Shown in pieces: positions 1-35,928 of a stretch of DNA of 35,928 bases. Both the position numbers and the translations under genes were made by a program. A model generated the notes under the pieces. It did no database searches. It was not told the DNA's origin and saw nothing but the letters and a program-made list of their open reading frames with translations. The DNA comes from Ginglymostoma cirratum. Lineage: Eukaryota. The stretch's first letter is position 1, and each line of letters starts with the position of its first letter. The stretch is from NCBI GenBank assembly GCA_024137785.1, contig JAHRHZ010000027.1:1-35928 (forward strand). The letters run 5' to 3'.

Positions 1-380
1 ATTCTGATAAATTACAGTCTGAAACTGAAAATGATTGTAAACCTTGATGTGAAATAATTTGTTCTCACTTGGAACCAATACCAATGGGAATATCAACAAT
101 GACAATGTTCTACATTTTACTGACAGACTTGGATCATAAAGATATTTGTGTTATTGTTGGTGCCGATGTTGGCAATGCCGTTGAAGAGACTTCACAAATA
201 TATTCACTTCCTATTGAGGGATCAGATAATATATAGCTTCATCTGGGTCTCACTTGCAGACAACCAAGAGGGAACTCTTCACAAATGGGACCTCAGGGCT
301 TTTTGTGAAGAATGGATTTTGTTGAATTCGTTTGACTATAACTGTCCCTGTTGAGAGAAATGTGGAAGTGACATATGGAA
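1..380. repeat. Paralog of about 31320-31700 (stalk 2 region)
   Basis: Direct alignment at offset 31319. Confidence 0.93.
129..210 (-). pseudogene. Stalk exon 2, unit 1, with in-frame stop: GSEYICEVSSTALPTSAPTITQISL*
   Basis: Acceptor ccctcaatag (phase 1), S/T/P-rich, TGA at 136-134, possible phase-2 donor AA|gtctgt; identical to 31529-31448. Confidence 0.72.
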
Positions 381-984
381 CATTATTTAGGTTTCATTCC
401 TCTCCTGTATATTGATGCCGCTGTATTCTTATTAAAGCACAGGAAAGGTTGAGGTTGCTGTGACTGTATTCCTGAGATCCCCTTTCTCACCCTTTTCAAA
501 CAAAAAGGAAAGTTCCAGCCACAGAGATGGTCACTGCCATCATTGGACAACGTGTTCCTTGGGGGATCCAGCAGCCGTTGCTGTGCCCTGTGATATCCTG
601 TGATTACTGGATAAGCTTCCACTGTGATTTGGACTTAAGTTTTCACTGCAGGTTTTATATGTAATGAAGCAGAACCCTGCTAGCTCCGTCACATGAGGAC
701 AATGTGTGGGTATTATCGTACTGACAAGTCAACAGATGTTGACGACGGCTTGTGTCCTGGACATGATTTACAGCCACGGACACTTCAGGGTGTGCACTAA
801 AACTGAGGTATTCAGTTACAGACAGTGGAACACTTCCTTCAGCAAGTGATGCTTAATGTGACCCAAACCCAGGTGGAATTTGACACCGTTATCCCCTCGG
901 GTCATATGGTACGATACACTGGTGACATTGACTATTATGGTCATAACACATACAAGCTGTGAGAGGGAGCACAAATCTCGAGCG

Positions 985-2190
985 CATTAATAATAAGAAG
1001 AAGAACCTCTCTATAGCAGGGGAACTAAAACTGTACACAAGACTCCTAAAGTGGCCTCACCAATGTCCTGCACAAACTCAAAATAATGTTCCAACTCCTC
1101 TACTCAATGGCCTGAGCAATGAAGGCGAGTGCACTTAATGATTTCTTGACCAACCTGCCTGCAGGTGATGCAACTTTCAAATAATTATGAACCTGACCTT
1201 CTGGATCTCTCTGTTCGACAACAGTACCCAGGGTCCCACTATTAATTGTACAAACACTGCCCTTGTTTGTTTTAGCAAAATGCAATACCTTGCATTTTTC
1301 CAAATTGAACTGCATCTGCTGTTCCTCAGTTCATTGGCCCAATTGATCAAGATTCCGTTGTACTCTTCGGTAACCTTCTTCACTGCCAACAAGCCACCAG
1401 TTTTGGTGTCATCCACAAACTTACAACAATGCCTCCTACATTCTGATCAAAATCATTCATCTACGTTACCCCAATCACTCTGAAACACCATTGGGTCGAA
1501 GCCAAAAGTACTAAACACAACCGTCCAGCACCAGCCTCTGTTTTCTGCTGTTAGCCAATTTTGTATCCAATTGACAAGATCATCCTGAATCCCATGTATT
1601 CTAACTTCAATCATTAGTTTACCACAGGGAATACTGTCCATGTAGACAATGCTTGCTGCTCTGCCCTCATCAATCTTTTTGTTTACGTTCTCAAAATTAC
1701 TCAAGCAAGTTTGTAAGGTACGATTTCCCACGCACTATTCCTCATCAGTCCTTGCCTCCTGAAACACATATAAATTCTATCTCTCAGAACCTTCTCCAAC
1801 AACTTACCCACCACTGATACCAGACTCACAGGCCTATAGTGCCCAGTCTTCTTCCATCTTTTCTGAAATAAAGGCCCAACATTAGCCAGCCTCCAGTCCT
1901 GCAGCACCTCAGCCGTGGCTGTGGATGACACGATTCTCTCTGCCAGGGGTCCAATAATTTCTTCCTTAACTTCCCACAATGTCCTGAAAAACAAGTGATC
2001 ACTTCCCAGAGATTGATCTGCCTTTTTGTTTTTAGACCTCCAGCGCTTCCTCTTCTGCAATGTTATCTGTTTGCAAGATATCAATATTTGTTTTCCTGAT
2101 TTCCCTAACCTCCTGATCTATCTCCACAGTAAAATCTGATGCTAAGTAGACATTTAGTATCTCTCCAATCTCGTGTGGTTCCTCTTGTAG
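985..2190 (-). mobile_element. Old CR1 LINE fragment (RT region)
   Basis: Broken ORFs with YRPVSLVSVVGKLLE, IVYMD, WIQNWL, QFNLEKCKVLHF. Confidence 0.93.
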
Positions 2191-2579
2191 ATGATGTAGT
2201 TCACTTTCTCTCCCGAATCTGAGGGTTGATGCATCACATCTGGGCTTGTTAAAGGGTATGGGCTGGTAACTACAACCCAGATATCCCACCTGTTTAAAAC
2301 CAAGAGTTTCACATGGAACTGTCACTTGCTGATATTAGCTGTGGTCAATTCCACTCTCTTGGAGTCAGTTTCCTGAGCTTTCAGGAATAATGTGAAAACG
2401 CATCCACAGACACACAACCTGTCAGTGATTTTCCATTGGTTGAAATGTAAGGATCCATGAGGAAGACTAATGTGGTTCCCCATCTTCACGGGTTATGCAG
2501 GCAACATGGCTTGACTGTGGTTTAAGAAAACCACTTCTACAGTACCTACAAAGTTAAATTTTTATCCTTTATTCTTTGT

Positions 2580-2750
2580 TGGCCAGCTTTTGCTGCCTAT
2601 TCTGAATTACCCCTGACTGATTGGCTTTCTAGGCTTTTGAAGAGGACAGTTAAGAATCAAGCACATTGCTGGAGTCCCATGTAGACTAGAGCTGGAAAGA
2701 ACTGCATGTTTCCTTCCCTAAAGGACATTATTGAACCAAATAGTACTTAA
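2580..2750 (-). mobile_element. Fragment of tRNA-derived SINE (same family as 19143-19489)
   Basis: Reverse complement of the ggttcactaatgtcctttagggaagg...cagcaatgtg core; paralog at 23680-23845. Confidence 0.7.
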
Positions 2751-3638
2751 CAGGATCTTAGGGGACCCCAAAATACCTCACATTCGATGAAATTCTCAGT
2801 TGAAGGGAGCAAACTGTTGGAAACCACCAGGATGTGGAAGTGAATTTGAAGGCAAGCAACAGAATTGAAGTAATTCTCTGAAATATCCGATTGCTTTTAG
2901 CAACATTGATTGAGGAAGGAATGCTTGCGAGGACACCAGGAGAACCTTCATTCTGCAAATAGTTTCCAAATGATGCTATCCCAAAGGGTGAATAAGTTGT
3001 CAGTTTATCACCTCATCGACACTGTCTCAGCTGCAAGAGCACAGCATTCCCTCTCTCTGCTGGGCTGTGGTATCCAGCTGAATTTTAACCCCAAAGGGGA
3101 ACTTGAACACACAACATGTTTGTGATAAATGTTCGAGTGCAGCCACATGAGCCGCTGCTGATAGTTACAAATACAGTTTCTGTGTGTCATTGCTACTTGA
3201 TGCTGACCTGCTTCTTCTCTGACAGCTCGAACACGAGATCATATCAGGAAATGCCTGCAGTCAATACTTGCAGATATTTCATCTGTACAACTCACTTCCA
3301 ACCTATACCCAATATCTGTCCAAAATCTGGACATAACAGTCATGCACTGAGTTTGATAATTCCGTCTGGTAGAAAAATTCAAATTGTCAGTCAATCAAAA
3401 ACTATTTTAATTATTACGGATTCTTGGAGTTATCGCAATGTTTATGCGTGCCGTGGGGAACATTTTATTAACCTGCTCATGTCGAAAGTACAATGCAAAC
3501 TGTTGGGTTTATTCACAATTGGCGATGAAACAAATGGTGTGTATTTTATCAATTACAGTCTTACAGAATGAGATAAAAAAACATCTAGTTTAAACAGACA
3601 TTCAGTAAAAAAAATCACATTGTTTGCTTCACACTCAC

Positions 3639-3961
3639 CGATGCTGTCGATGTGTATTCTATACCAGCAGTTCTTCTCTGTTACATTGTTGACTGACACA
3701 TGAACAATTTCACTGGATTTTGTTCCCTGAGTATTTGAGGCTGTGCAGTAATATTGATGATGTTGCTGTGTGAAGGATTGACAATGTAGATCCAGCTTAC
3801 TGGTGTCAGAGATCTTTGAAACTTGAGATGGGGTCTTCTCAGACCACGTGCAGTGAATGGGGAGGGATCCGTGGGCAGACTCACAGGAGATTGTCACTGA
3901 GCCCCCAGAACGTGAGACATTTGGTTGTGACAAAAATGAAGTTGAAGAGCAGAGACAGCTT
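3639..3961 (-). pseudogene. C2a exon, unit 1, frameshifted
   Basis: 323 nt versus 324 nt in unit 2; 1-nt deletion near 3937 (CTT C-A TTT vs CTT CGA TTT); remainder matches ORF 3553..3978. Confidence 0.88.
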
Positions 3962-4111
3962 CTGTGGGAAAGAAACAATTGTTTAGAAATTGACCGCCAT
4001 CAAAAAATCAAATACTCTCCAACACTTTGTTATCTTGTTCCCTGGATAAAGCATTGATCAGACATATCAGCAGAATTGAAAATCAAAATACTATCAGTGA
4101 GACATATGTAC

Positions 4112-4426
4112 CATCAGAGATGTGCAGCTTTACGTGAAACATTGGGTCAAGGCCCTGAGTCTGAATCCCACAGCTGTACCATCCTGTATCTCCCCTTTGA
4201 AGATTCTTTATTGTAACAGGAAATATTACTTGTATTTTGTTATCTGCGATTCATATTCTCCCATTTGCCCAGTTTGTTGTTGCTATAACATTACACTGAC
4301 GAATTCATCTGTGACACCAATATTTAATGTTTGACTGGTAGCGTCATACTTGGTAGTGGCAATGTGTTGTGATCGCTCTTCCCAAAATTCCCGATACAGG
4401 CTTCTCTGCCCATAAAGCACCTGAAA
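4112..4426 (-). pseudogene. V-type (CD300/pIgR-like) exon, unit 1, inactivated
   Basis: 315 nt with intact splice sites but three in-frame TGA codons (4346-4344, 4307-4305, 4253-4251); retains KYWC...C and GDTGWYSCG. Confidence 0.9.
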
Positions 4427-6791: not shown

Positions 6792-6828
6792 TGGGAATGC
6801 AACAAATGAGGAGAATCAAAATCCACAT
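6792..6828 (-). pseudogene. Leader exon, unit 1 (MWILILLICCIP); intact but heads a pseudogene
   Basis: ATG, hydrophobic 12 codons, A|gtgagt donor; paralog of 27859-27823. Confidence 0.85.
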
Positions 6829-10554: not shown

Positions 10555-11140
10555 AGCGTTCTAGGCACCAAAACCTCATCTTAACGAGGCCTATGGTCTG
10601 TTCCACTTTGGCCCTGGTGGAAGCAGGAGCAGCATTGTATCTTCATTGTGTATCAGTCAATGGGTTTGATAAAGATGTCACTGGCCGAGTTTCAAGAGGG
10701 CTCTCCTTGTCTCCCAGCAGCCATCCCTGTACGTCCTGAGGACATTGGGAAGAAGCAGGACCCAGTGATCTCTCGAATATCTGAGCATCGTGGGAGCTCC
10801 CAGGATATCAATGACCCACCTCCAAAACCTGGCATCGAAGGTCACATCCAAAGTGAGCTTTGATGTAGGTGGAGACTTTTCTGTTGCCGAGCTCTGCAAG
10901 TTAGTGATGGGGACATTCTAACAGCAATGTGGGTGCAGTTTATCGCATGCTGCCCCTGGGGGAAGCCAGTGACGTTGGAACATTCCCCTTCCTGGACTGA
11001 GTGACTCACCGTGTCACAGCTCAGGGAAACATATGAGCAGCTGTGATCTGGAGAAAATGGCAGCAGTGACAGCTTGACTGCATTTGTGTGTCAGAGAGTG
11101 GGAGGTGCCACGCAGCTGCCCAGTTGGTCCTTGAACTCTT
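10555..11140 (-). mobile_element. Fossil PIF/Harbinger DDE transposase (HARBI1-like), frameshifted
   Basis: Ordered motifs across frames: GTSHSLTHKCSQAVTAAIF..FP, GFPQGQHAINCTHIAV, NRK, YPGSSHDAQIF, GWLLGDKESPL, RYNAAPASTRAKVEQTIGLVKMRFWCL. Confidence 0.88.
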
Positions 11141-11754
11141 GTCCATGTGATAACGCCATGAGAATGTCCGAGGTGTATAACCTCATCCAAATGTAATCTG
11201 CACAACCAAAGACATCGAGTTTCATTTTGGGTGCATAATTCTGGCAATAAGCCACTGTGATAGACACCCGCCTCCCAAAGAAAAGTCTCCCTTGCACATT
11301 GCAGACTATCTCCTCTCAGACCTACAATTCAGTGTGTGAACGTGGCGGCTGAGAATTGCATTTTGTTACTGATAGCTATGCAGTGCTTTACAGAAATGCC
11401 AAACTCAAGTGGTACTATAAAATGAGCCTGTCTGATTACATTCGCCTTGTTAACAAGACACTGAATGTGAATAATGTTGTGGTCAATGATTGCTTGAGAC
11501 CATAACGTGTAATGCTTATTTCTGGACAATGAATGACCTGCCGTTGTAGTGGAATTGAATGGTAGTTGTGTGACTGAATCAGTGGATGCAGGGTGGATGC
11601 AATAGCCCCGACTGGGTTTCAAATTCATAGGATTTCACGGTCTCCCTCCACCTCCTCCCAAAATATGAATCAATGACTTCACACCACTCTGCAAGTGACT
11701 CTTGTACAGTGAGTGGGACAAACTTTGTCAAGTGTCAAACTAGTGATTTTGTGC

Positions 11755-11900
11755 CATAATGAAAAATTACTAGAAACTGAGCAGGTCTGGCAGCCTCTGT
11801 GGAAAGAAAGCAGAGTTAATGTTTGAGCTCCAGTGACCCTTCTTCAGAACTATCAGTAGCTGGGAAAGGGTGGTCTATATGCTGCAGACACGGGACTGGG
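11755..11900 (-). mobile_element. Penelope-like element pLTR fragment
   Basis: agcaggtctggcagc...gacccttcttcagaa; minus strand CTGAAGA-AGGGTC...CAAAC is a degenerate hammerhead core. Confidence 0.6.
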
Positions 11901-12499
11901 GTGTTTGTGTGAGTTACCAGCAGACTCGATCTGTGATCCAGAATGATCCTTCTTCCACTCTTTTGTGTTGCTGTCCCTGTGGACCCAATGATCTTCTACC
12001 GTCTCACTGTTTCTGTTCATTCACTTTCTGTAACCATTATGCCCCTAATTTACCATCAGAGCACATGTGTTTGAGAATTGCAGAGCCCTTATTGACCCGA
12101 AGCCCACACCATGTAAGTAATAGTGACTTGGGAAAGCCTCACCTCCTGTTGCTCTCTGGCACTTCCTATGTTCAATGAGAGCCCCCCGAAAGGGTGATCT
12201 TTATGTGGTATTTCCTCTTTGGACCAGGCCAGAATCAGGTTTCTTCACTTAAATATTTATTAATGCTTGCGTGGAAGCTGGACATAAGTAAATATGGTGA
12301 ACAAATCACATCTTTAAAATGGCAATAAGGATTTTCTCAGATTTGTATAGATAACAAGCTTTCATACAATGATTTCTCTAAATAATAGCATGCAGTCAAA
12401 CTGTTAGACATTACCTCGCCTGTATCTCTATTCTACAGTATTCGCATGCTATACATTCCAGATTATTACACATGACTTTAGTATCCAATCCAATTAAAA

Positions 12500-12850
12500 C
12501 GAGGGCATGCACAGGCTGAATAGCCAGGTTCTTTTTCCTGGATTTGGGAGTCCACAACTAACGGGCAGAGGTTAAAGTTGAAAGGGAAAATATTTAAAAA
12601 TGGCCTGAGGAGTAAGTTTTTCACACAGAGGGTAGTGCGATTATGGAATGAGCTGCAAGAGGATGTGGTGGAGGCTTGTCCAATTATGACATTTAAGAGG
12701 CATCAGGATGGATATATGAACAGGAAAGGTTTAGAGGTATGTGGGACAAATGCTGGCAAATGTGACCAGGTCAGATTGGGATATCGGATCGGTGTTGCGG
12801 GGGAAGTTGGGCTGAAGGATCTAATTCTGCGTTTTATGACTGTCTGACTC
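12500..12850 (+). mobile_element. CR1 LINE 3' end
   Basis: FFTQRVVRLWNELQEDVVEA...TFKRHQD. Confidence 0.9.
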
Positions 12851-14429
12851 GATGGACATGATTATATTACCCAATCATATAATGTACATCCTGTCATATA
12901 TTGTTAGATATTCACATCTTCCAGCTGGAAGTACATCTTCTGACAGTAGATATGTAATTGTGATGACCAGAAATCTTACTCTGTCTATTTTTCCCTTTTA
13001 ATACCCTTTTATCTTGAACTGCCTTTACTCACTGTCATCATTCTCTCAGTGACACAGTCCAATCAAGCCTATCCCAGACTTGATTTGATCATTTCCCTCA
13101 GGCTCCCATCGACTTGCCCCTGATAATTCCGCAAAACATTCCTGATCAAACCATCACTGACTACCAACCCAATGTGGACTGACTCAGCAGGAGAGTTCCA
13201 AATGAAAGTGGCCCAGTGCACGGACTCATATCTCCTAGCTCCCAGAATGAGCTCTCTGTAATTCCTGGGCTGGATACCCTTGCATGATGGGACTGAGTGA
13301 GGCCCAATGCCTGGAACACAAGGACCCAGATCCCCAGAGTCTGGTGAGAGCAGGCACTGACTGACCATGGACTGGAATTGAAAGAGAGCCTGAATTGATT
13401 GTGGCATCAGCCCTGGATTCCACATAGTCCCCAGTCACCCCACTCGGCACTGCTCTCCTTTCACTTTCAGACATGGCAATTTCACTGAAGCACATTACTG
13501 TATTTGCCACATGAGATACTGGCCAGTGATATCAGAGTGACACTGACATGGTATGGTGCCATACAGTGAGATGCTCACTCCCTTCCCTGCTCAGTGCCTC
13601 CCACTGTGACAAGCTGCCAGCTTTGAACTCTGTGGTACAATGCAATGCAGCTCACAGAGTCTGGCAGGCTGCAGTTTACAAAGCCAGAGTTCTGTGTTTA
13701 AAAGCAATGTAAAGCACTGAGGCTGGCAGCCTGCAAACAAGTGTCCCCGAGCTCCAAATTCAAGTGGGTGTGACAGCTGGAGCGAGAGCAGGTCTGATTC
13801 TGTAGGGAAGGCTGATCGTTTGCTCCTGATGACTTGAGTGGATAAAGAGTGGAGGAGGGTTGTCTCCAGGGAGCGTGCAGGGATGTTGTGGTGACAACAG
13901 ATGAAGTCTGGGTGAGGTTTGGAACAAGCAATCAGCGAGTAGTATCTGCCAGTTAGATGCTGTGATTAACACATTGGGAATTTGCACTGTGTATTTCCTG
14001 GGTGGAAGAGAACAATTGGAAATGGTGAAAAAGTGGCGAGAGTTGGGCTAATAATGAGGCACAAATACATGGAAATAAGATGGTCACAACTCATTCGTGA
14101 GATTCTCAACATGCCATTTATACACCTACGCAGAAAATTGGAAAATCTTTTCTTGATGAGAAGTTCTGATTCTTTCATGATTGCCATATTTTCCCAATTT
14201 CTTGCAATTTCCCTGATTGTTCCAGGGAGGGAAAAATTCCACCCACTTTCCTCTTTCCCTGTGATAGTCTCCCATTCTCCTTAAAAAATATACGTTGATC
14301 TATCCCGTATAAAAGTGAAACACATCATGGGAGTCTCTGTTTCCAGTGAATGAATAATCCAAGTTACTTCTTTGTTATAGAAAGGGGCTTCTCTTGACAG
14401 ACATCATGACAAAACAAAATAAGAAGTTT

Positions 14430-14714
14430 TAATGAGCAGTGTTACATTCCACAGACAAATATCAATCAAATGTAAACACTTAACTTTGTGATTACAGTGA
14501 TCATTTCAGGTTTTTGTTCGTTTTCAACTACAATAATTCAAAATCATCTTATGACAAGATCTCTTTTCCCACACAGAATTGATGAAACCAATATCCGATG
14601 TGAGATAGTTAAGAAATATTTTATCAAGATGCAAACTTCCAGCCAATGCTGCAGTAGCAGAGAATCTTCACTTTCCCAATTGGTCGAGCTGAGAGCATCA
14701 GATTCAATGAGGAA
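14430..14714 (-). other. Probable non-coding terminal (3'UTR) exon, unit 2
   Basis: Strong acceptor ctgatgtttctttccag at 14715, conserved in unit 3 (29615); an indel between paralogs argues against coding; 3' end uncertain. Confidence 0.45.
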
Positions 14715-15939: not shown

Positions 15940-16030
15940 CTAATGTTTTCTCATATACACTGTTACAGAAACAGAGCAAATCACCAGGAGAGTGAAGAAC
16001 ACCCAGCAGATTACATTCCAGACACCGTAA
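15940..16030 (-). CDS. Transmembrane + short tail exon, unit 2: (S)YGVWNVICWVFFTLLVICSVSVTVYMRKH*
   Basis: Acceptor catttttctcag (phase 2), about 23-aa hydrophobic run then basic RKH, TAG immediately followed by gtgagt; paralog at 30689-30590. Confidence 0.82.
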
Positions 16031-22000: not shown

Positions 22001-25000
22001 CCCTCACAAATCCATGCTGACTATCATGGATCAAACTATGCCTTTCCAAGTGATCATAAATCCTGTTTCTCAGAGCTCTTTCCAATAATTTGCCCATCAC
22101 TGAAGTAAGGCTAACTGGCCTGTAATTTCCGGGGTTATCCTTGTTCCCTTTTTTGAACACGGGAATGACGTTTGCCTCTCTCCAATCTTCCAGCACTATA
22201 CTCGTGGACAATGAGGATGAAAAGATCATCACCAAAGGCCCTGCGCTCTCTTCCCTCGCTTCCCATAGAATCCTTGGATAAATCCAATCAGCCCCGGGGG
22301 ACTTATCGTTCTTCAATTTCCTCAAAGTTTCTTGTACGTCTTCTTTACTAACATCCACCTCCTCTAGCCTATCAGCCTGTCTCACATTGTTCTCCCCGAT
22401 AGCGAGGTCCTTCTCAGCTGTGAATACCAAAGAAAAGTATCCATTAAGGACCTCTCCGATCTCTTCAGGCTCTGTGCACAAATTCCCTTTACAATCCTTG
22501 ATCGGACCTGCTTTACTCTGGTCATTCTCTTATTCCTCACGTACTTGTACAAAGCCTTGGAGTTTTCCTTGATCCGATCTGCCGATGTTTCCTCATGCCC
22601 CCTGATGGCTCTCCTGAGCTCTTTCTTCAGCTCCTTTCTGGATAACTTGTATCTCTTTCAAGCCTTTTCTGTTCCTTGTTTCCAAAGCCTCACTGAAGCA
22701 TCCTACTTTCTCTTAACTTTCTCATTTGACCTCACTTGAGAACCAAGGCTCCCTCACTCGACCGCATCTTCCCTGCCTGCTTGGGACAAACATATCGAGT
22801 ACATGCAGTATGCATTTTTTGAACAATCTCCACATTTCTATCGTGTTCTTCGCTGACAGCATCTGTTCCCATTTTATGTTACCCAGTTCTTGCCTAATAG
22901 AATTATAATTTCCCTTCCACCGATTATAAACCTCACCCTGCTGTATGTACCTATCCTTTTCCACGACTATTGTAAAAGTAACAGAGATATGCTCACTTAC
23001 GCCAAAATGCTCCCACCAGCAGGTCTGACACTTGGCCCGTTTCATTGCCAAGCACTCCACAGTAAAAACTGATATGAAAGTTTGGATCAGTATCTCTCCC
23101 ACATTCTGTGGTTCCACACATGGACAATCTTGTTGACTTCCTTTCCCAAATCTGAGAGTTGATGTCTAACATCTGGGTTTGTTAAAGGGTTTGGGCTGGT
23201 AACTTCAACGCAGTTATCCCACTTGTTTAAAACCACGAGTTTCACATGGAGCTGTCGTTTGCTGATATTGGCTGTGGTCAATTCCACCCTCTTCGTGTCA
23301 GTTTTCTGAGCTCTCAGGAATGAGGAGAAACACCCCACAGACACATAACCTGCCAGTGATTTCCCATTGTATCGGAGATAATAGGAACTGCAGATGCTGG
23401 AGAATCCGAGATAACAAGGTGTCGAGCTGGATGAACACAGCTGGCCAAGCAGCATCACAGGAGCTCCTGATCCCATGATGCTGCTTGGTCTGCTGTGTTT
23501 ATCCAGCTCTACACCTTGTTATCAGTGATTTCCCATTGGCTGAACTGTAAGTATCCAGGAGGCAGACACATGAGGTGCCCCATCTCCATGGAGTACATAG
23601 ACAACATGGCTGAGGTGTATTTTAAGTGAACCATTTCTGCAAGAACTAAATTGTTAAATTTTTATTGTTTATTCTTTGTTGGACAGTGTTTGCTGCCCAT
23701 TCTGAATTACCTCTGACTGATTGGCTTTCAGGGCTTTTGAAGAGGGCAGTTAAGAATCAAGCACATTGCTGGAGTCACATATAGACCAGAGCTGGAAAGG
23801 GCTGCATGTTTCCTTCCCTAAAGGACATTAATGAACCAAATAGTGCCTTCCAGGATTTTAGGAGGCCCCAAAATGACTCACATTCGATGAAGTGCTCAGT
23901 TGAAACAAGCAAACCGTTGTAATGCAGCAAGATGTAGAAGTTAATTTAAATGCAGTGAAAAGCATTGAAGTAATTCTGTCAAAAATCTGGTTGTTTTTAT
24001 CAATTGAGGAATGAATTCTTCCTTTGATATCAGGAAAACCTCCATTCTGCAAAGAGTTTACAAATGACGCCATACCCAAACGGTGAACAGGTTCTCAGTT
24101 TATCACCTCATCGATGCTGTCTCAGCTGCAAGAGGACAGCATTCCCTCTCTCTGCTGGGCTGTGGTATCCAGCTGAATTTTAACCCCAAAGGGGAACTTG
24201 AACACACAGCATGTTTGTGATAAATGTTAGAGTGCAGCCACATGAGCCGCTGCTGATAGTTACAAATACAGTTTATGTGTGTCATTGTTCCTTGATGCTG
24301 ACCAGATTCTCTCTGACAGCTCAAACACGAGATCATATCAGGAAATGCCTGCAGTCAATACTTGCATATGTTTCATATTTACAACTCATCTCCAACCTAT
24401 ACCCAATATCTGCCCAAAATCTGGACATAATAGTCACTTCCCGAATTTGATAATTTGATCTGGTAGACAAATTCAAATTGTCCGTCAATCAAACGTTTTT
24501 TAATTTTCGGGGATTATTGGAGTTATTACAATGCTCATGCATGCTGTGGGTAATATCTTACGTACCTGCTCATTTTTGAAGAACAAAGCAAACCGTTGGT
24601 TTTGTTCAGAACTGGCGATGAAACAAATGGAGTGCGTTTTATCAATTACAGTCTTACAGAATGTGATAAAATGCAACCAGTTGCAATACACTTTCAATAA
24701 AAAAGAAATCATATTGTTTGCTTCACACTCACCGATGCTGTCGATGTATATTGTATACCAACAGTTCTTCTCTGTTACATTGTTGACTGACACATGAACA
24801 ATTTCACTGGATTTTGTTCCCTGAGTATTTGAGGCTGCGCAGTAATATTGATGATGTTGCTGTGTGAGGGATTGACAATTTAGATCCAGTTTATTGGTGT
24901 CAGAGATCTTTGAATCTTGAGATGGGGACTTCTCAGACCATGTGTAGTGAATGGGGAGGGATCCCTGGGCAGACTCACAGGAGATTGTCACTGAGTCCCC

Positions 25001-27859
25001 AGAACATGAGACATTTGGTTGTGACAAAAATCGAAGTTGAGGAGCAGAGACAGCTTCTGTGGGAAAGAAACAATTGTTGAGAAATCGACTGCCACCGAAA
25101 AATCAAATACTCTCCAACACTTTGTTATCTTGTTTCTTGGATAAAGCATTGATCAGACATATCAGCAGAAATAAAAATTGAAATAATATCAGTGAGACAT
25201 ATGTACCTTCTGAGATGTGCAGCTTTACATTAAACATTGGGTCAGTGGCAATGCCAGGTTTGTCAATCCCACAGCTGTACCATCCTGCATCTCCCCATTG
25301 AAGATTCTTCATTGTAACAAGAATTATTCCTTGTGTTTTGTTATCAGTGATGGATATTCTCCCATTTGGCCAGTTTGTTGTTGCTATAACATGACACTGA
25401 TGAGTCCATCCGCGACACCAATATTTAATGTGTGACTGGTACCACCCTGCTTCGTAGTGGCAATGTATTGTGATTGCTCTTCCCAAAATTCCCGTAACGT
25501 ATTTCTCTGCCCATAAAGCACCTGAAACTGAGGAGAAAATATTTCAGAGATTTGGAAATTTCTAAAGAAGTGCTTAACATGGATGGATACATTGTAATCA
25601 TTGACATTCTATCTAGTTTGATTGAAAGAGTCGGACCCAATGGGTCAAGTTTTGGGGCAGCCTTGAAATTGGGCTTGTGCTAAACAATGTCGGCTCTAAG
25701 TCCACTGTGTGTGGCACCATCGAAGTGTAACTCCTGAAGAGCAGTCTGAATGACAGGCCTGGATTGGAGTCGGCTGGGGATTAGTGTGAAGGAGGCTACA
25801 GGTGCTGAAGGGTTCTTATTCTGACCGGAGAGGGAGAGTTTCAATCGGGGAGGAGAGGGGAGTATGTCGACTCATGGTGTGCTGAGGGGCTGAATTTCCA
25901 GGTCTTGAGGGGAAGATGCAACAGGTGACACAGGAAGATTATGAGAGGCCGCAAGGAGTTAAAGGAGAGATTTGAAGTTCAGCAAGGGATGGTTCACAAA
26001 TGTGAAGCTCAATCACAGATGGCACAGTGGCTCAGTGGTTTGCACTGATGCCTCACAGTGCCAGGGACCCTGTTCCTTTTCCAATCTCGAGCAACCGTGT
26101 GTGAAGTTTGCACGTTCTCCTTGTGTCTGCGTGGGTTACCATTGGATGCTCCTGTGTCCGCCCACAGTCGAAAGATGTGCAAGTTCAGTGGATTGGCCAT
26201 GCTAATTTGCCCATAATGTTTTGGGATGAGTAGGTTATGTTCATTAGTCACGGGAAATACAGGGCTACTGGGATGGGGTAGGGGAATGGGTCTGGGGGGC
26301 GTGGGGATGCTGCTCAGAGGGTTGTTGTTGAGCTGTTGGGCCGAATGGCAAGTTTCCACACTGTGGGGATTCTATGATCTATGGTCAATATGCAGAAGCT
26401 TAGGACAGTAAAGGCAGGATTAATTGTAATCACACATTGCTCTCAGTGTAAGGATAGTAAAATAACAGAAGGAATTTACTGATTTTTCTGGAGAGACACT
26501 TCATGAGAAAATGTTTAAATTGCAGCCATATTGTGTCCTGGTGTGGAAGAGGGGCAGCCTGTTGATGATTGGGTAAACTTTACCTCAAAAGATATGATTG
26601 TGTGGGAAACAATTCTCAACCGAAACGAAAGAAAGGATTTTAAAATAAAATGAAGTGGTTGAGAGGAAAGGAGAAAGGGAGAAACTGCATGAACAATTAA
26701 AGCTGATGGAAGTCACGAATGAGAGTTCTTATTGAAAAAGGAAGTCTTGAAGAGGATTGCTGAACACACAGAGGCACACTTCGGTTTTCTGTCTGTAAAG
26801 TATTCTGCATGAAATTGGTGAGCTTGAGCCTCAATCTGTTGCAGAAAGATTTCCTGTAACATTTCACTGAGCTGCGGCCCTGGGAACTTTAATACTTTGC
26901 GTGTTCATCTCTGCTTCATTATAAACGAAGGGGAAGTGGCAATATTGAACAATAATGTTATTGCAATGTTACAATTACAATTGTGATAATTGATGGACAT
27001 GAAAGAACTTTGTTCAAGTTAAAGACAGAAAGGAAAAAGCCTTCTTATGGGAAGAGAAATATAAACAAACCATCGACTTTTGTGCCAGAGTCTCGCAAAC
27101 AACATTTAATGAACGTTCTATTACAGGAAAAGAAAGGAAAGCAAACCCAAGATGTTTAGATTGACAGCTTACTACCTCACCAGTTTTCAGTGTATATTGA
27201 ACATTTAAAACTTTGGACCAGTTCAACTGATGATGCTGTTTGAATCACTTTAAAAAACATCATGCTGTCCTTTTCTTTATTTTATTCATAATTAATGATG
27301 CAGCTGTAAAGTATTTGGTAACAGTCTTGTGATATTATCATATTTTCAGAAGAAGATATAACATTTCCTGATGCTCTTCATGTATTTTTACATTTTTTCA
27401 TTTGAACCTCAGTCAAAGCACACGGTGCTTCTGTTTTCTGCAGTTTGTTCTTCCTGGAACAGGTCACCAGCGTCAGACCAGTTTGTGTAATTTAAGGGGT
27501 GTCACACTGCGCTGGATAAAGCTGACTTGGAATCTCATTCACGCTTGCTCCCTGCCATGGGCACGTTGGAAGAATTTGCAGGTTGATGATGAACCTGTTT
27601 ATCTTTGTGAGAATGCACATTCCTTTGGAAAGTGTGCTGGAGAATAAATCGAACTCTCAGCATTTATCACAGCAATAAAGATGTTACCTGCTGTGTCAAC
27701 AAGATGTTCCTTTGTGCTTTTACATGTGTCCAAATATGTAAACATCTCTATACTGTATAAACCAGACAGTAGACTTTAATAAACATTAATTATTGGAATA
27801 AACATCTCAGATGGTCACTCACCGGGAATGGAACAAATGAGGGGAATCAAAGTCCACAT
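15940..27859 (-). CDS. Spliced gene model (unit 2): CD300/pIgR-like V + C2 Ig receptor (MDIR-like), 297 aa; exons 27859-27823, 25527-25207, 25056-24733, 18578-18458, 16030-15940
   Basis: Five exons with AG/GT boundaries and compatible phases (1,1,1,2) sum to 37+321+324+121+91=894 nt, an open frame from ATG to TAG: signal peptide, V, C2, S/T-rich stalk, TM, MRKH*. Exon joining is inferred; no transcript evidence is available. Confidence 0.7.
17069..17390 (-). pseudogene. Dead second C2 exon (C2b), unit 2
   Basis: Paralog of C2a; in-frame TGA 17367-17365 and TAA 17361-17359, 2-nt deletion near 17133, TAA 17084-17082, donor mutated to ataagt. Confidence 0.9.
17506..17680 (-). mobile_element. 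HE1-type V-SINE 5' part
   Basis: Reverse complement of the V-domain (catggccaatccacc...gagaatgtgcaaact). Confidence 0.8.
18140..18225 (-). pseudogene. Possible decayed transmembrane exon (TM1) downstream of stalk 1
   Basis: NYMVCDVLCL aligns codon-wise with SYIVWNIMCW/YGVWNVICW of the intact TM exons; after a frameshift LAAMCSGVTF resembles LVICSVSVTV; no usable phase-2 acceptor found. Confidence 0.4.
18458..18578 (-). CDS. Stalk exon 1 (Ser/Thr/Pro-rich, one Cys), intact: GQGYICDIFSPKSLTNTHSPNTNRISSPSQTQTSEDKTSE
   Basis: Acceptor ttccttgtttcaacag, donor AAG|gtcgga (weak), 121 nt, phase 1-2; start homologous to stalk 2 (GSEYICE). Absent from the ORF track. Confidence 0.75.
18757..20745 (-). 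mobile_element. Old CR1 LINE (RT to 3' tail), interrupted by a SINE and by a young CR1; resumes at 23056-23115
   Basis: PGNYRPVSLTSV, AVDVVYMDFS, FNFDKYVVLHFG; tail near 18757. Confidence 0.93.
19143..19489 (+). mobile_element. Full-length tRNA-derived SINE distinct from HE1, nested in CR1
   Basis: A box (tggcctcgtgg), B box (gggttcaaatccc), tail gtgaatgaattataaaaaaa; CR1 sequence resumes on both sides. Confidence 0.82.
20746..23055 (-). mobile_element. Young 5'-truncated CR1 LINE nested in old CR1
   Basis: Long ORF2 pieces (KSPGADWIYP, NYRPVSLTS, QGSVLSP, FTDDT) and 3' (TTCTATG)n tail at 20746-20765. Confidence 0.96.
23354..23538. mobile_element. Fold-back Penelope-like pLTR insertion (153 bp) with 16-bp target site duplication
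   Basis: cagtgatttcccattg at 23354-23369 and 23523-23538; inverted arms 23410-23457 / 23476-23523; empty site at 2423-2438. Confidence 0.85.
23680..23845 (-). mobile_element. SINE fragment, paralog of 2580-2750
   Basis: tttccttccctaaaggacattaatgaacc core. Confidence 0.7.
24733..25056 (-). CDS. C2-type Ig domain exon (C2a), intact, FcR/LITR-like
   Basis: Acceptor tttctttcccacag, donor G|gtgagt, 324 nt, phase 1-1; EAVSAPQL...GDSVTISCESAQGSLPIHYTW...QYYCAASN...SSEIVHVSV...KNCWYTIYIDSI. Confidence 0.9.
25207..25527 (-). CDS. V-type Ig domain exon, CD300/pIgR/TREM-like, intact
   Basis: Acceptor ttttctcctcag, donor G|gtacat, 321 nt, phase 1-1. Translation ...GRAITIHCHY...KYWCRGWTHQC...RISITDN...MKNLQWGDAGWYSCG has the canonical Cys/Trp, DxGxYxC, and the extra C-C' Cys pair typical of CD300/pIgR. 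Confidence 0.92.
26017..26378 (+). mobile_element. HE1-type V-SINE, paralogous insertion to 4983-5325
   Basis: ggcacagtggctcagtggtttgcactgatgcctcacagtgccagggacc head, V-domain, same flanks. Confidence 0.9.
27823..27859 (-). CDS. Leader (signal peptide) exon, unit 2: MWTLIPLICSIP
   Basis: ATG + 12 codons + 1 nt, followed by gtgagt donor (phase 1); continues into VSGALWAE of the V exon; paralogous exon at 6828-6792. Confidence 0.85.
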
Positions 27860-29384: not shown

Positions 29385-29389
29385 ATTTA

Positions 29390-29614
29390 TTTAACTTGGT
29401 GGTTACTGTTATCATTTCAGTTTTTTGTTCTTTTCCCATTACATTAATCCAAAATCATTTCATGACAAGATCTCTTTTCTCACACAGAAATGTCCAACGT
29501 GAGATAGAACATGAATATTCAAACAAGGTGCAAATTTCCAGCAAATGACACAGGAGCAGAGAATCCGCACTTTTCCATTTTGGTTGAGCTGAGAGCATCA
29601 GATTCAATGAGGAA
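29390..29614 (-). other. Probable 3'UTR exon, unit 3
   Basis: Same acceptor and sequence as 14714-14480. Confidence 0.4.
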
Positions 29615-30589: not shown

Positions 30590-30689
30590 CTAATGTTTTC
30601 TCATATACACTGTGACAGAAACAGAACAAATCACCAGGAGAGTGAAGAGCACCCAGCACATTATATTCCAGACAATGTAACTGGGCAAA
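30590..30689 (-). pseudogene. Transmembrane exon, unit 3: LPSYIVWNIMCWVLFTLLVICSVSVTVYMRKH*
   Basis: Two phase-2 acceptors 9 nt apart (exon start 30689 or 30680), TAG|gtgatt. The exon itself is intact, but the upstream exons visible here carry stops. Confidence 0.75.
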
Positions 30690-31447
30690 CTGGACAAAAT
30701 ACAAAATCATTTGTAGGAAACAAGTTTCCTTCATGTTTCAAACATTTATCCGCTGTTTACACTACAATCTTAGTTTATTGTAGCCAAATAAAGCTGCACA
30801 GCTCAGAGAGTTAAGTGGGGAAACTGAACTACAGTTTAATTCCTGCATGACATGAACAATAGATAAAGGTGAACTGAAACAAGGTTCAGTAGCATGATGT
30901 ATTGCACATCACAACGTTATGCTCAGAACAGCATCATCCCACAGTGCTCCTTGCACTTTCTAACAGGCAAGTCTGAACCAGCTGGAACCAGACAGCCTTT
31001 CACCCTCTCAGTTTGGGAACAACATGTAACTCTGAGGATCTGAGGAAGAGAAGATGACGGAGAATGTTATGTCCCTGTCAGTGATACTGCAGAATGCCCT
31101 GAGTGTTCAAAAACTGCCATTTCTTTGCTTTGAAAACTACAACACCATGAGCAGAGATCAATAATAAGGCATTTAACTTTAATGGTGAAAACTGCACTCG
31201 AATCTGCGAGGTGACAAACAGAAAATTGTTACTTTCTATCATAGATTTCCAATTTTATGAACAGCAACATTGTCAGGAAGGTAACGGGATAGCATCGTAT
31301 AAAATCAGGCACCATCTCCATTCTGATAAATTATAGCCTGAAATTGGAAATTCTTGAAAACTTTTATGCAAAATGACATGTTATCACTTGGAATCAATGC
31401 TGATGGGAATATCGACAATGAAAAGGTTCTACTTTTTACTGACAGAC

Positions 31448-31529
31448 TTGGATCATAAAGATATTTGTGTTATTGTTGGTGCCGATGTTGGCAATGCCGT
31501 TGAAGAGACTTCACAAATATATTCACTTC
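31448..31529 (-). pseudogene. Stalk exon 2, unit 3, with the same in-frame stop (31455-31453)
   Basis: Lies between C2b and the TM exon; identical to the unit 1 copy. Confidence 0.72.
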
Positions 31530-31709
31530 CTATTGAGGGATCAGATAATATTCGGCTTCACCTGAGTCTCACTTACAGAGAACCAAGAGAGAACTCTTCA
31601 CAAATGGGACCTCAGGGTTTTTTGTGAAGAATAGATTTTGTTGAATTCATTTGTTGACAACTCCCGCTTTCTGGAGAGATGTCGTAGTGACATAACTTCA
31701 ACATAATTT

Positions 31710-32110: not shown

Positions 32111-32283
32111 CTAGCATCTATTTTCAAAAACAAATCAATGCTTTGCTCAAAATTGTTAAAAAATGAAAGTGACATAATGGGATGAGGTGCAGTTAATCAT
32201 GTGATGAAAGAAGCTGAACAAATGAACAGTTTGAATAGCCATGAAATGAATTAATCAACTTCAGTGTCTGTAAAAAAACTTAC

Positions 32284-32607
32284 TGATGCTACTGGTTCAT
32301 ATCATCTCACTACAGCTTCTCTCTGCTCCCCTGGCAAATGACACATGAACAATTTCACTGGATTTTGTTCCCTGAGTACTTGAGGCTGTGCAGTAATATT
32401 GATGATGTTGCTGTGTGATGGATTGACAATGTAGATTCCATTTATTGGTGTCAGAGATCTTTGAATCTTGAGATGGGGCCTTCTCAGACGATGTGTAGTG
32501 AATGGGGAGGGATTCCCGGGCAGATTCACACGACATTGTCACTGAGTCCCCAGAACATGAGATAATTGGTTGTGATTAAAATTAAAATTCAGGAACAGAG
32601 ACATTTT
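32284..32607 (-). pseudogene. Dead C2b exon, unit 3
   Basis: 324 nt; TAA 32584-32582, TAA 32578-32576, TGA 32299-32297; core Trp changed to Ser (HYTS); donor gtaagt intact. Confidence 0.9.
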
Positions 32608-32689
32608 CTTTGCGAAGAAACAATTATTACAAAACTGACTGTAAGTGAAAAATCAAAAACTCGAATACGAAGACCTTCACTGTCACATC

Positions 32690-33542
32690 CAGTGTCACAA
32701 GGTCAGACAGCACAGAAATAGAGCCTTCTGTTTCATATGTTCATGTTAAACAAGTTTCTCAAAAGAAACTAGCCCCACCTGCCAGTGTTTGGCCGTTATC
32801 CCACTAAACATTTCCTAATCATATACGTATCGAAATGTCTTTTAAATGTTGTAACTGTGCCTTCATCTATCATGTTCTCTGGCATTTTATTCCACATATG
32901 AACCACCCAGTGTGTGAAAAAAGTTGCCTCTCAGGTCCCTTTTACATCTTTGTCACCTTACCTTACCTTTAAAATATGCCCTCTCACTGTGAAGTCTCCC
33001 ACACTAGGGTAAAAATACCTTTGCTATTTACCTTATTTATACCCCTCATGATTTTATAAACCTCTGTAAGTTCACCCCACACCCTCCTATGCTCCATTGG
33101 AAAATGTCCCAGCCTTTCCAGCCTATCCTAACAGCTCAAACCCTCCAGTCACGGCAACATCCTGGTAAATCTTTGGTGAACCTTCTCTAATTTTATAATA
33201 ACCTTCCTATAGCAGGGTGGATAGAACTGTTCACAGTAATCCAATAGAGGCCCCACCGACGTCCTGTACCATCTCAACATAACGTTCCAACTCAATGGCC
33301 TGACCAATGTCGGCAAGTGTGTTAAATGCTTTCTCAACCACCCTGTCTCCAGGTGATGCAAATTTCAAATAATTATGAACTTGAGCCTTGAGATCTCTGT
33401 GTTTGATAACACTTCCCAGGGTCCTACCATTAACTGTATAATCACTGCCCTTGTTTGTTTCAGCAAAATCCTATACCTCGTATTTATCAAAATTAAGCTT
33501 CATTTGCCATTCCTCAGTTTGTTGGTATAATTGATCAAGATC
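32690..33542 (-). mobile_element. Old CR1 LINE 3' part
   Basis: LDYCEQFYPPCYRKVIIKLEKVHQRFTRMLP plus 3'UTR. Confidence 0.9.
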
Positions 33543-35928
33543 AGGATTTGTGATCCCAGGGATGAGGTATTCAGACTTCCAACAGACACAACAGGGAGTG
33601 AGGTTGTTAATAAAGAAATGCAGTCGATGGAGCGTAATTGTGGACACAGGGATGGTTTGAAGTGTGTATACTTCAACGATAGAAGTATCAGAAATAAGGC
33701 GGATGAACTTACAGCATGGGTCAGTAATTGGAGCAACAAAGTTGTGGCCATGACAGAAACTTGGGTAACTCAGGGACAGGAATGGTTGTTGGAAGTTCTG
33801 GAATTTAGATGCTTTAAAAGAAATAGGGAGGATGGTAAAAGAGGCAGCAGAGTGGCATTGCTAGTCAGGGCCAGTACAGGCGCTACTGAAAGGCAGTTTG
33901 AGAATGGTATGTCGACAGAGTCAGTTTGGGTTGAGATCAGGAACAAGAAAGGATCAGTCACTTTGCTGGGGTATTTTTTTACAGACCCTCTAATAGTTGC
34001 AGAGAAGTGGAGTTGCAGATTAGGAAGCAGATACTGGAAAGGTGCAGAAGTCGGAGGGTTGTAGTGATGGGAGACTTCAACTTTCCAAATATTGATTGGA
34101 AACTTTTTAGTTGTCATAGTTCAGATGGAACAGATTTTGTCCAGTGCATTCAGGAAGGATTCCTGACACAGTAAGTAAATAGACCAACGTGAGGAGAAGC
34201 CACTGTGGATTTTGTGTTTGGCAATGAACCAGCCACGTGTTAGACCTGTTGGTGGGAGCATTTTGGTGGTAGTGATTATAACTCTGTTACTTTTACAATA
34301 GTCATGGAAAAGGATAGGTACATACAGCAGGGTAAGGTTTAGAACTGGGGGAAGGGTAATTATAATTCTGTTAGGCAAGAACAGGGTAGCATAAATTGGG
34401 AACAGATGCTGTCACGGAAGGGCACTATAGAAATGTGCAGATTGTTTAAGGAATGCATACTGCATGTGATTGATATATTTGTCCCTAGCAGGCAGGGAAG
34501 GTGTGGTCGAGTGAGGGAGGCTTGGTTCTTGAGAGAAGTCGAACGACTAGTTAAGAGGAAGAAGGATGCTTATATAAGGTTTCGGAAACAAGGATCAGAA
34601 AAGGCTCTAGAGAGATACAAGTTAGCCAGGAAGGAGATGAAGAAAGGGCTTAGGAGCGCTATAGCAAGAGAAAAACTCGGCAGATGGATCAAGGAAAACT
34701 CCAAGGCTTTTTACACGTACGTGAGAAATAAGAGAATGACCAGAGAAATGGTAGGGCCAATCAAGGATTGTAAAGGGAATTTGTGCACAGAGCCTGAAGA
34801 GATAGGAGAGGTTCTTAATGGATACTTTTCTTCGGTATTCACAACTGAGTGGGACCTAGCTGTAGGGGAGGACAGTGTGAAAAAGGCTGGAAGTCTAGAG
34901 GAGGTGGATGTTAGTAAGGACGATGTACTAGGAATTTTGAGGAACTTGAAGATAGATAAGTCTCCCGGGCCTGATGGGATTTATCCAAGGATTCCTTGAG
35001 AAGCGAGGGAAGAGATTGCAGGGCCTTTGGCGATAAACTTTTCATCCTCACTGTCCACGAGTATAGTGCCGGAAGATTGGAGAGAGGTAAATGTCGTTCC
35101 CTTGTTCAAAAAAAGTGAATAGGAACAACCCCGGAAATTATAGGCCAGATAGTCTTACTTCAGTGGTGGGCAAATTATTGGAAAGGGCTATGAGAAATAG
35201 GATTTATGATCACTTGGATAGGCTCAGTTTGATTCGTGACAGACAGCATGGATTTGTGAGGGGTAGTTTATGACCACTAAACCTTATTGAATTCTTTGAC
35301 GAGGTGACCAAACACGTGGATGAATGTAGAGCAGCGGGGGTCGTATACATGGATTTGAGTAAGGTGTTTGATAAGGTTCCCCATGGTAGGCTCATGGAGA
35401 AAGTAAGGAGGCATGGGATAGGGGGAAATGTGGCAGATTGGATTCAGAATTGGCTGACCCTTAGAAGACAAAAGGTGGTGGTGGACGGAAAATATTCAAC
35501 ATGGTACTTAGTTACAAGTGGTTTATCACAGGGATCTGTGCTGGGTCCTCTTCTATTTGTGATTTTTGTAAATGATTTGGATGTAGGAGTGGAAGGGTGG
35601 ATTAGTGTGTTCGCGGACAATACGAAGGTGGGTTGAGCTGTGGATAGTGCGGAGGGCTGTTCTAGGTTACAAAGGGACATTGATAGGATGCAGAGCTGGG
35701 CTGAGAAGTGGCAGATGGAGTTTAACCCTGAAAAGTGTGAGGTGATTCATTTTGGAAGGACTGATTTGAAAGCAGGATACAGTGTTAACAGAAAGATTCT
35801 TGGCAGTGTGGAGGAGCAGAGGGATCTTGGGGTTCATGTCCACAGTTCCCTGAAAGCTGCCACCCAGGTGGATAGAGTTGTTGAGAAGGCATATGATGTG
35901 TTAGTTTTTATTAATAGAAGGATTGAGT
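33543..35928 (+). mobile_element. Young CR1 LINE (endonuclease + RT, disrupted), runs off the window
   Basis: LKCVYFNDRSIRNK..MTETW (APE), KSPGPDGIYP, YMDLSKVFDKVPH, QGSVLGP, FADNT; same subfamily as 20746-23055. Confidence 0.96.

Follow-up and report, generated by a model that had tools for sequence, protein, structure and literature searches.

According to PMC3031540, MDIRs are multigenic activating and inhibitory receptors similar to CD300, TREM, FCAR and pIgR. The named members compared here are clearnose skate MDIR2 (P0071), which has a tyrosine-motif tail, and MDIR5 (P0078), which has an Arg. The activating MDIR form is said, in Cannon's 2006 account, to carry a positively charged transmembrane (TM) residue. 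True pIgR has tandem V domains only and a long tail with transcytosis signals. Fusion, conversion and decay are familiar processes at other paired-receptor loci. In human FCGR2C the ectodomain of an inhibitory gene is joined to the 3' end of an activating gene, the chimera having been born in a segmental duplication (PMC6563257). No genomic description of a shark MDIR cluster was found in the literature searched.

The stretch analysed here (the window) comprises 35,928 nt of Ginglymostoma cirratum (assembly GCA_024137785.1, contig JAHRHZ010000027.1, positions 1–35,928). Sequence comparison identifies it as part of a carpet-shark MDIR cluster with CD300/pIgR-like V and FcRL-like C2 domains. All 75 homologue hits are elasmobranch, those from carpet sharks being 71–88% identical, which upholds the initial annotation in placing here an innate receptor cluster, of IgSF type, from a cartilaginous fish. 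Among solved structures, V matches pIgR and CD300 at the top by sequence and C2 is FcRL5-like. The mammalian proteins concerned (CD300/CMRF35, pIgR and TREM for V, FcRL5 for C2) are distant, and none joins these V and C2 types. Leader, V and C2 are of the types found in the skate MDIRs (V 53% identical to MDIR2 and 51% and 48% to MDIR5; C2 60% to MDIR2 and 63% and 58% to MDIR5), and 12 of 24 TM residues of MDIR5 are identical to the array's TM2. However, the window copies are mostly pseudogenes, and the one open product has neither the tyrosine motifs of MDIR2 nor the Arg of MDIR5.

Carpet-shark gene models (whale shark P0042, zebra shark P0002 and P0022, Hemiscyllium P0058, Chiloscyllium P0059 and P0060) are 71–88% identical in V and share a clade with the array in the V and C2 trees. 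In these trees rays and skates are represented by MDIR2 and MDIR5 alone; the V tree additionally leaves aside Mustelus P0005, P0006 and P0008 and Pristiophorus P0118, and the C2 tree was built by a quick method. The models are annotated as pIgR-like, CMRF35-like or FcRL5-like. The name pIgR-like is no proof of Ig transport; unlike a pIgR transporter, the array product has one V, one C2 and a four-residue tail. The models either keep the TM2 Arg or have a TM1 with ITIM-like motifs, and predict open C2 and stalk2 exons, whereas both TM2 copies in the window carry Cys, so that the activating subtype is not represented while family membership is unaffected. Nor is the inhibitory subtype seen inside the window, where tail exons are absent and TM1 is at most a trace. 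The family is multigenic with variable domain number: besides the three units here, 125 homologues have 1–12 domains, the long ones often being fused models, and take the forms V, V-C, V-V-C, V-C-C, V-C-V-C and longer. Birth-and-death evolution, as proposed earlier, is supported in this family of variable V and C2 number; a modular architecture is already implied by the name MDIR.

The array consists of three paralogous units, all on the minus strand and 83–88% identical, with colinear blocks far above chance. Units 1 and 2 align over 2422–4519 and 23522–25621 (86.6% identity) and over 4584–7951 and 25619–28986 (84.2%), units 2 and 3 over 14480–16620 and 29391–31181 (82–84%) and over 16897–17507 and 32111–32722 (83.7%), and units 1 and 3 over 1–389 and 31320–31710 (86.4%). 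Three divergent copies on one strand constitute a real tandem array, and the three head-to-tail units first described are borne out by these long blocks. Only unit 2 lies wholly within the window. The TM exon of unit 1 is expected beyond position 1, and for unit 3 the 5' half lies past the LINE sequence that closes the window. The claim that each unit lacks a different module is not confirmed, since unit 1 is cut off before its TM and unit 3 is complete from C2b to the last exon. The leader (L) has a phase-1 end. As initially annotated, V and C2 exons are phase 1-1, the stalk exons (121 and 97 nt) are phase 1-2 and TM2 begins in phase 2. The proposed free interchange of modules is not borne out: the stalks, at phase 1-2, are not freely interchangeable, and three of the four membrane-directed splices tried for unit 2 are closed. 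No tandem repeats were found in the window, and a Pfam search of six ORFs from 9875–13965 for hidden exons between units gave no match. The intergenic tract at 11009..14125 (minus strand) matches, in order and in four pieces of 36–96% identity, the non-Ig filler of zebra shark P0002, which sits between the TM2 gene and the TM1 gene of that fused model.

The exons of unit 2, like those of units 1 and 3, are all on the minus strand. The leader exon (27823..27859) is open and has Pro as residue 6, a position taken by Leu or Val in 26 of 26 leaders from carpet sharks. The V exon (25207..25527) is open, with acceptors at 25527 and 25521 and an extra Cys pair; it is of CD300/pIgR type (Pfam V-set, 5.8e-10), 88% identical to whale shark P0042 and 53% to skate MDIR2. 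The C2a exon (24733..25056) is an open FcRL-like C2, 60–63% identical to MDIR2 and MDIR5. The stalk1 exon (18458..18578) is open and phase 1-2, with a GTCGGA donor (C at +3), and its nearest stalks are those of ITIM-type zebra shark genes (scores 107–108). The C2b pseudo-exon (17069..17390) has three stops at the positions seen in unit 3, a 2-nt deletion and a donor changed from GT to AT. The TM2 exon (15940..16030) is open, with Cys for Arg and a four-residue tail ending in TAG; this TAG was rejected as a lesion, the same end point, four residues after TM2, occurring in six carpet-shark models. A last exon (14640..14714, start only, acceptor 14714) lies 3' of the stop codon; this exon after TM2, like the inactivating lesions, had been overlooked.

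The initial annotation of unit 2 as L-V-C2a-stalk1-(TM1)-C2b-TM2 lacking stalk2 stands except for TM1. A faint TM1-like trace at 18284..18373 (minus strand), with in-frame stops and no acceptor, is probably what was first read as TM1. A tblastn search with the 75 homologues gave no TM1 match at E<=0.01, and type A tails (see below) gave weak, inconsistent matches (E 0.5–1.7). A frameshift-tolerant TM1 profile with a self-score of 101 reached 31.4, ending at 18284. This score has P=0.003 against shuffles of the same intron, but it was reached by 6 of 40 whole-window shuffles and the plus strand yields 33.5 by chance; a TM1 with 25% of its residues randomised would be expected to score about 69 (5th percentile 45). 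On these scores TM1 is not established in unit 2 and is a faint trace at most.

Units 1 and 3 have the compositions originally assigned (L-V-C2a-stalk2 without stalk1 or C2b, and C2b-stalk2-TM2), and most modules of the array are dead. In unit 1 an open leader exon (6792..6828) is followed by a V pseudo-exon (4112..4420) with stops at codons 25, 38 and 56 and a C2a pseudo-exon (3639..3961) frameshifted by a 1-nt deletion near 3937; the reading frame ends after 39 residues. Its phase 1-2 stalk2 exon (114..210; TGA at 136–134) lies within 118 nt that are identical to unit 3, where stalk2 (31433..31529, phase 1-2) has the same in-frame TGA at 31455–31453; the stop of this identical tract may have spread by conversion instead of descent. 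This TGA is unlikely to be the end of a secreted form, as homologues read through it and a phase-2 donor follows. In unit 3 the C2b pseudo-exon (32284..32607, phase 1-1) has stops at codons 8, 10 and 103, all shared with unit 2, and the TM2 exon (30590..30680, phase-2 start) has Cys for Arg and a TAG at the donor. The homologous segments have Arg in 39 of 39 cases against Cys in the TM2 of units 2 and 3. The last exon (29540..29614, start only, acceptor 29614), again 3' of the stop codon, is 96% identical between units 2 and 3, and in unit 3 it weakly matches short Mustelus type B tails (E 0.44–0.83).

The modules missing from units 1 and 2 were lost by deletions whose junctions can be mapped. 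At 986..998 unit 1 lacks what corresponds to 16866–19591 of unit 2, a segment that contains stalk1 and C2b. The interval 2122–2438 (23055–23369 in unit 2) was rejected as a unit 1 copy of stalk1; it continues an old LINE and its flank and matches no homologue. In unit 2 about 0.9 kb, with stalk2, was removed at 16620..16663, a junction filled by a 38-nt inverted copy of 16797–16834. A second point in unit 2, 17507/17508, lies within a LINE-tail remnant and SINE fragment (17483..17675, minus strand) that are joined there without long homology, and unit 2/unit 3 homology stops at it. The remnant, 17483–17507, is the last ~25 nt of an older LINE 3' fragment, which in unit 3 (32698..33541, minus strand) lies directly upstream of C2b, at the expected place of the V exon. 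Recombination between this LINE tail and the LINE at 18773, deleting stalk1, is not supported, as the two are 72–77% alike and their flanks differ. That older LINE, in the C2a–stalk1 intron (18773..20728, minus strand), shares its position with unit 1 (998–2105; 75.7% identity). Private to unit 2 are a young LINE inserted within an older one (20745..23055, minus strand) and an insertion at 23368..23523 with a 16-nt target-site duplication and an internal inversion, for which unit 1 shows the empty site. A further young LINE (33543..35928, plus strand; Pfam Exo_endo_phos and RVT_1) runs off the window, masking sequence 5' of unit 3, and is 86% identical to 21339–23063 in opposite orientation.

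Relatives suggest where such a cassette may have come from. Two types of gene occur in them, nearly identical in their ectodomains: type A has stalk1, an uncharged TM1 and an ITIM-like tail, and type B has stalk2, an Arg-bearing TM2 and a short tail. In 25 carpet-shark proteins there were 21 TM matches, 14 of them scorable for stalk pairing and 7 not. Stalk2-like exons accompany TM2 in 9 of 9 cases and stalk1-like exons TM1 in 3 of 5 (Fisher P=0.027, the rows not being independent); these pairings are predictions, since most of the homologues come from automated gene prediction and many of the models are visibly fused. Of the two exceptions, one is a tie at 42 v 41; the other is zebra shark P0002, in which a stalk1-type exon precedes an Arg-TM2, followed by the same intergenic tract as after unit 2. 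Since stalk1 usually precedes the ITIM-tailed TM1 and stalk2 the Arg-TM2, the cassette looks like a fusion of a type A 5' half with a type B 3' half, for which 17507/17508 is a candidate junction. The trees do not separate C2a and C2b into A and B inside the carpet-shark clade, and the V tree behaves likewise.

We favour the view that the window is a decaying stretch of MDIR paired receptors in which an A/B fusion cassette was probably duplicated, converted and eroded. A deletion would first have joined L-V-C2a-stalk1 of an A gene to C2b-stalk2-TM2-last exon of the next B gene. With its phase-2 end, stalk1 splices in frame to TM2 only; the bypassed C2b and stalk2, which now carry stops, and TM2, which has lost its Arg, would have decayed as a consequence. 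Three copies of the region are now present, 13–17% apart, with shared lesions, patchy gene conversion, and retroelement insertions and deletions that are separate. Unit 2 has dropped its dead stalk2, and unit 1 its stalk1 and C2b; the V and C2a of unit 1 have died. Unit 1 could instead be an independent A-to-B deletion, not a copy of the same cassette. The proposed hybrid follows the chimera logic of FCGR2C, although the gene families are unrelated. FCGR2C came about through homologous unequal crossover and carries an ITAM of its own, whereas the junction here appears non-homologous, dead exons separate the two halves and the Arg for adaptor binding has gone.

The window can yield at most one protein, the predicted unit 2 product, which is probably an inhibitory/activating hybrid. 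Only L-V-C2a-stalk1-TM2 (297 aa), of four membrane-directed splices tried, is open; it has an ordinary V-C2 ectodomain and neither ITIM nor adaptor-binding Arg, and therefore no new ectodomain arises. The only genuine module swap sits at the stalk/TM boundary and alters signalling class, not ectodomain. For the fate of unit 2, recent death has about an even chance, a non-signalling membrane receptor or decoy is appreciably less probable, and a secreted read-through form is unlikely. That all three units are pseudogenes, the unit 2 path being merely stop-free so far, falls just short of an even chance. The leader Pro at residue 6, the lost TM2 Arg and the C at +3 of the stalk1 donor fit it, as does C2a, where a relative-rate test found no difference between units 1 and 2 (5 v 6). 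Against it stand 297 open codons in five exons with intact GT/AG beside lesion-rich exons, and the V exon, in which unique changes in unit 2 and unit 1 are 4 v 24, 3 v 19, 6 v 18 and 6 v 20 with four outgroups (P 0.0002–0.02). This asymmetry indicates that constraint on V lasted longer in unit 2 than in unit 1. Pairwise dN/dS of the Ig exons is 0.9–1.5, which fits the favoured view of a decaying stretch.

More tentatively, unit 2 may be an expressed hybrid, its inhibitory-type ectodomain and stalk joined to an activating-type membrane exon by splicing that skips dead exons and uses the phase-2 boundary common to both. The fusion would then be older than the split from zebra shark, where P0002 keeps the Arg, and the product a signal-dead decoy in this lineage. 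A predicted secreted V-C2-stalk protein is unlikely. Read-through of the weak stalk1 donor gives an open 287-aa protein, the same read-through peptide terminates the whale shark model P0042 and also P0023 in its second half, position 18221 has an ATTAAA, and soluble CD300-like receptors occur in carp (PMC3031540). However, the P0042 and P0023 ends may reflect only a predictor that lacked the next exon, and one ATTAAA per 700 nt is the chance expectation. It is similarly improbable that a single ancestral gene underwent internal C2–stalk duplication without A/B fusion, its second module then dying: C2a and C2b are 82–85% identical, the stalk1 and stalk2 blocks are paralogous and V-C-C forms exist in relatives, but the two stalk blocks have no more than about 61% in common and correspond to the distinct A and B classes of stalk in other carpet sharks, and C2a/C2b homology breaks off about 50 nt 5' of the exon.

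Exon shuffling that generates ectodomain diversity, as originally proposed, would imply three functional receptors with interchangeable modules and is very improbable. Exon sets do differ per unit, Ig phases are compatible and V/C forms vary among the 125 proteins. However, unit 1 ends after 39 residues, units 1 and 3 are broken in their visible exons, both copies of C2b and of stalk2 are dead, V-C2a is the only open ectodomain, and the absences are deletions. On the per-exon grouping, C2 exons sort by class and not by shuffling, with 26 of 27 informative sites following the a/b classes. The stops are unlikely to be consensus errors because the same codons recur in separate copies. An assembly artefact or collapsed haplotypes are scarcely credible, given the divergence of the units, the insertions private to them, of which one has a target-site duplication and is matched by an empty site in the other unit, and the absence of N bases from the window.

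The copies thus differ through deletions from mostly broken duplicates of a known receptor family. MDIRs lie near the root of the CD300, pIgR, TREM and FcRL receptors and are little studied. The array gives a base-level history of one such cluster, in which shark paired receptors turn over via a probable fusion by deletion, conversion and decay, and it cautions against judging functional diversity from exon inventories or automated models of such clusters, which overstate it. If the hybrid reading is true, the phase-2 stalk/TM boundary would be a reusable sign switch of shark paired receptors.

Self-comparison of the window, which contains no N, reveals three paralogous units in the same orientation with blocks 83–88% identical, confirming the array proposed in the initial annotation. 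The offset is ~21 kb between units 1 and 2 and 14.5–15.2 kb between units 2 and 3, and units 1 and 3 have 1–389 and 31320–31710 in common. Every exon is on the minus strand, so transcription follows the order unit 3, unit 2, unit 1; unit 2 alone lies wholly within the window. A reading of the units as haplotypes is ruled out by insertions private to single units, one of which is flanked by a 16-nt target-site duplication and has its empty site in unit 1, and the units are therefore true paralogues. This insertion, at 23368–23523, also contains an internal inversion, and related short repeats are inserted at 29222–29376 and 31712–31825. Pfam domains excepted, we take the window repeats to be CR1-type LINE, SINE and Penelope-like elements. 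An old LINE common to units 1 and 2 (998–2105 / 19592–20728) is only 76% identical, against 85–88% in its flanks; this value may give the true duplication age, the rest being homogenised later. Units 2 and 1 are separated by a 6.5-kb spacer (7952–14479), part of which matches filler of a zebra shark gene model; this spacer is missing between units 3 and 2 (28987–29390).

Unit 2 consists of L (27859–27823), V (25527/25521–25207), C2a (25056–24733), stalk1 (18578–18458), C2b (17390–17069), TM2 (16030–15940) and a last exon starting at 14714. The V-exon acceptors 25527 and 25521 are 6 nt apart, and homologous models use both forms. Unit 1 has L (6828–6792), V (4420–4112), C2a (3961–3639) and stalk2 (210–114), and unit 3 has C2b (32607–32284), stalk2 (31529–31433), TM2 (30680–30590) and a last exon starting at 29614. 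The exon phases were correctly described at the outset. The TM1 exon then assigned to unit 2 is not established in the window: a profile built from 16 shark TM1 segments yields only a trace ending at 18284, scoring 31.4 against a self-score of 101. The trace outscores shuffled versions of the intron that holds it (P=0.003, 300 shuffles) but is no better than whole-window shuffles (6/40 reach its score), and falls far under the score expected from a normally decayed exon. Applied to TM2, this method detects both exons, with scores of 106 and 112. A putative small exon between stalk2 and TM2 (minus strand, 31005–31037 in unit 3 and 16460–16485 in unit 2) was spotted by eye in the alignment; it is bounded by AG...GT with phase 1-2 in unit 3, is 11 nt shorter in unit 2 and matches no homologue.

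The receptor family is already known. The V domain matches structures of pIgR, CD300 and TREM, C2a matches FcRL5, and Pfam is consistent with the V and C2 assignments. A homologue search gave 75 hits among 81 candidates, all elasmobranch and including skate MDIR2, a modular domain immune-type receptor; a second, with the Hemiscyllium homologue P0058 as query, returned 76 of 317, including MDIR5. Direct comparison with MDIR gives 48–53% identity for V and 58–63% for C2, and the closest homologues are from carpet sharks (71–88%; whale shark 88%). The window domains fall within a carpet-shark clade in both the V tree (30 of 80 rows, support 99, FastTree) and the C2 tree (32 of 100 rows, SH-aLRT 94, quick tree). 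V domains of TM1 and TM2 genes, as labelled from often fused gene models, are interleaved and group by lineage, the usual pattern for paired receptors. A Rhinoraja model named TRIM69-like (P0073), joining RING/B-box to MDIR-type domains, is probably a fused prediction. The literature searched contained no description of a shark MDIR cluster at the genomic level, a weak negative given its coverage of few subscription papers.

The absent modules are deletions. In unit 1 the junction 986/998 joins the equivalents of 16865 and 19592, with the loss of 2.7 kb including C2b and stalk1. In unit 2 the junction 16620/16660 marks the loss of ~0.9 kb, including stalk2; the gap there (16626–16663) is a 38-nt inverted copy of 16797–16834, of the kind that repair with template switching leaves. 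In unit 3 a repeat (31711–32110) stands in place of ~0.6 kb of lost intron, and no exon went with it. The majority of the window's modules are dead. Codons 25, 38 and 56 of unit 1 V are stops, and unit 1 C2a has a 1-nt deletion; the two copies of C2b (units 2 and 3) share stops at codons 8, 10 and 103, to which unit 2 adds a 2-nt deletion and a donor change from GT to AT. Both stalk2 copies (units 1 and 3) carry an identical TGA. Both TM2 copies have Cys where all 39 such segments among 125 homologues have Arg, a residue of the kind that binds an FcR-gamma-type adaptor in FcalphaRI, GPVI and LILRA. The stop four residues past TM2 is not a lesion, as it is present in 6 carpet-shark models, and is a clade feature. 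The unit 1 product ends at a stop at residue 39. Of four membrane-directed splices tried in unit 2, one is open (L-V-C2a-stalk1-TM2, 297 aa), and a form that reads through the stalk1 donor is open for 287 aa but has no TM. One stalk can replace another but cannot be dropped, and the modules are thus not freely interchangeable as first thought. Birth-and-death evolution is supported, its death side dominating the window, while the exon shuffling supposed to yield new ectodomains is not shown there.

A 118-nt identical tract between units 1 and 3 (115–232 / 31434–31551) covers the stop-bearing stalk2, in a block 87% identical overall and about 80% outside the tract; the longest identical run in 2000 permutations does not exceed 75. 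The tract is best read as gene conversion carrying a null mutation. Three further blocks show a milder excess of identical runs (P 0.004–0.04), and two show none. Among the four C2 exons (3639–3961, 17069–17390, 24733–25056, 32284–32607), 26 of 27 informative sites split C2a from C2b, all within 45 nt of the exon start or 55 nt of its end and none in the central ~225 nt, which suggests that the exon centres were homogenised. In units 1 and 2 an intronic block (3028–3177 / 24123–24272) reaches 98% identity, with flanks at 79–91%; it is either a conversion tract or a conserved element. Upstream of the leader, three 200-nt tiles (7234–7836 / 28269–28870) are 93% identical, over background, possibly reflecting a promoter or conversion.

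Homologues fall into two types by their 3' ends: type A has an uncharged TM1 and an ITIM-like tail, type B an Arg-TM2 and a short tail. In 25 carpet-shark proteins (21 TM matches, 14 stalks scored), stalk2-like sequences pair with TM2 in 9/9 and stalk1-like with TM1 in 3/5, and the window's stalk1 scores 107–108 against zebra shark type A stalks. From this pairing and match, the exon order reads as a probable A/B gene fusion, in which L-V-C2a-stalk1 followed by C2b-stalk2-TM2 would represent a type A 5' half and a type B 3' half without L and V. A candidate junction is 17507, where homology between units 2 and 3 ends and a LINE tail adjoins a SINE fragment. Stalk/TM swaps have precedent in predicted models only: zebra shark P0002 has a stalk1-type exon before Arg-TM2, followed by filler that matches window 14125–11009 colinearly and next by an intact type A gene, and an identical stalk end precedes TM2 in basking shark P0004 and TM1 in white shark P0014. 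The closest mechanistic analogue of such a hybrid is human FCGR2C (PMC6563257).

Pairwise dN/dS is 0.9–1.5 for the Ig exons and 0.68, on few sites, for TM2. Whichever of four outgroups is used, unit 1 V carries 3–6 times as many unique changes as unit 2 V. One of the four, the whale shark gene, may be nearer unit 2 than a true outgroup; the other three agree. In C2a the two units do not differ in unique changes. Three features speak against a live unit 2: the lost Arg, a weak stalk1 donor and Pro at leader residue 6, where 26/26 relatives have Leu or Val. It is doubtful that unit 2 is an expressed and functional inhibitory/activating hybrid; this possible hybrid is the most interesting point to remain.
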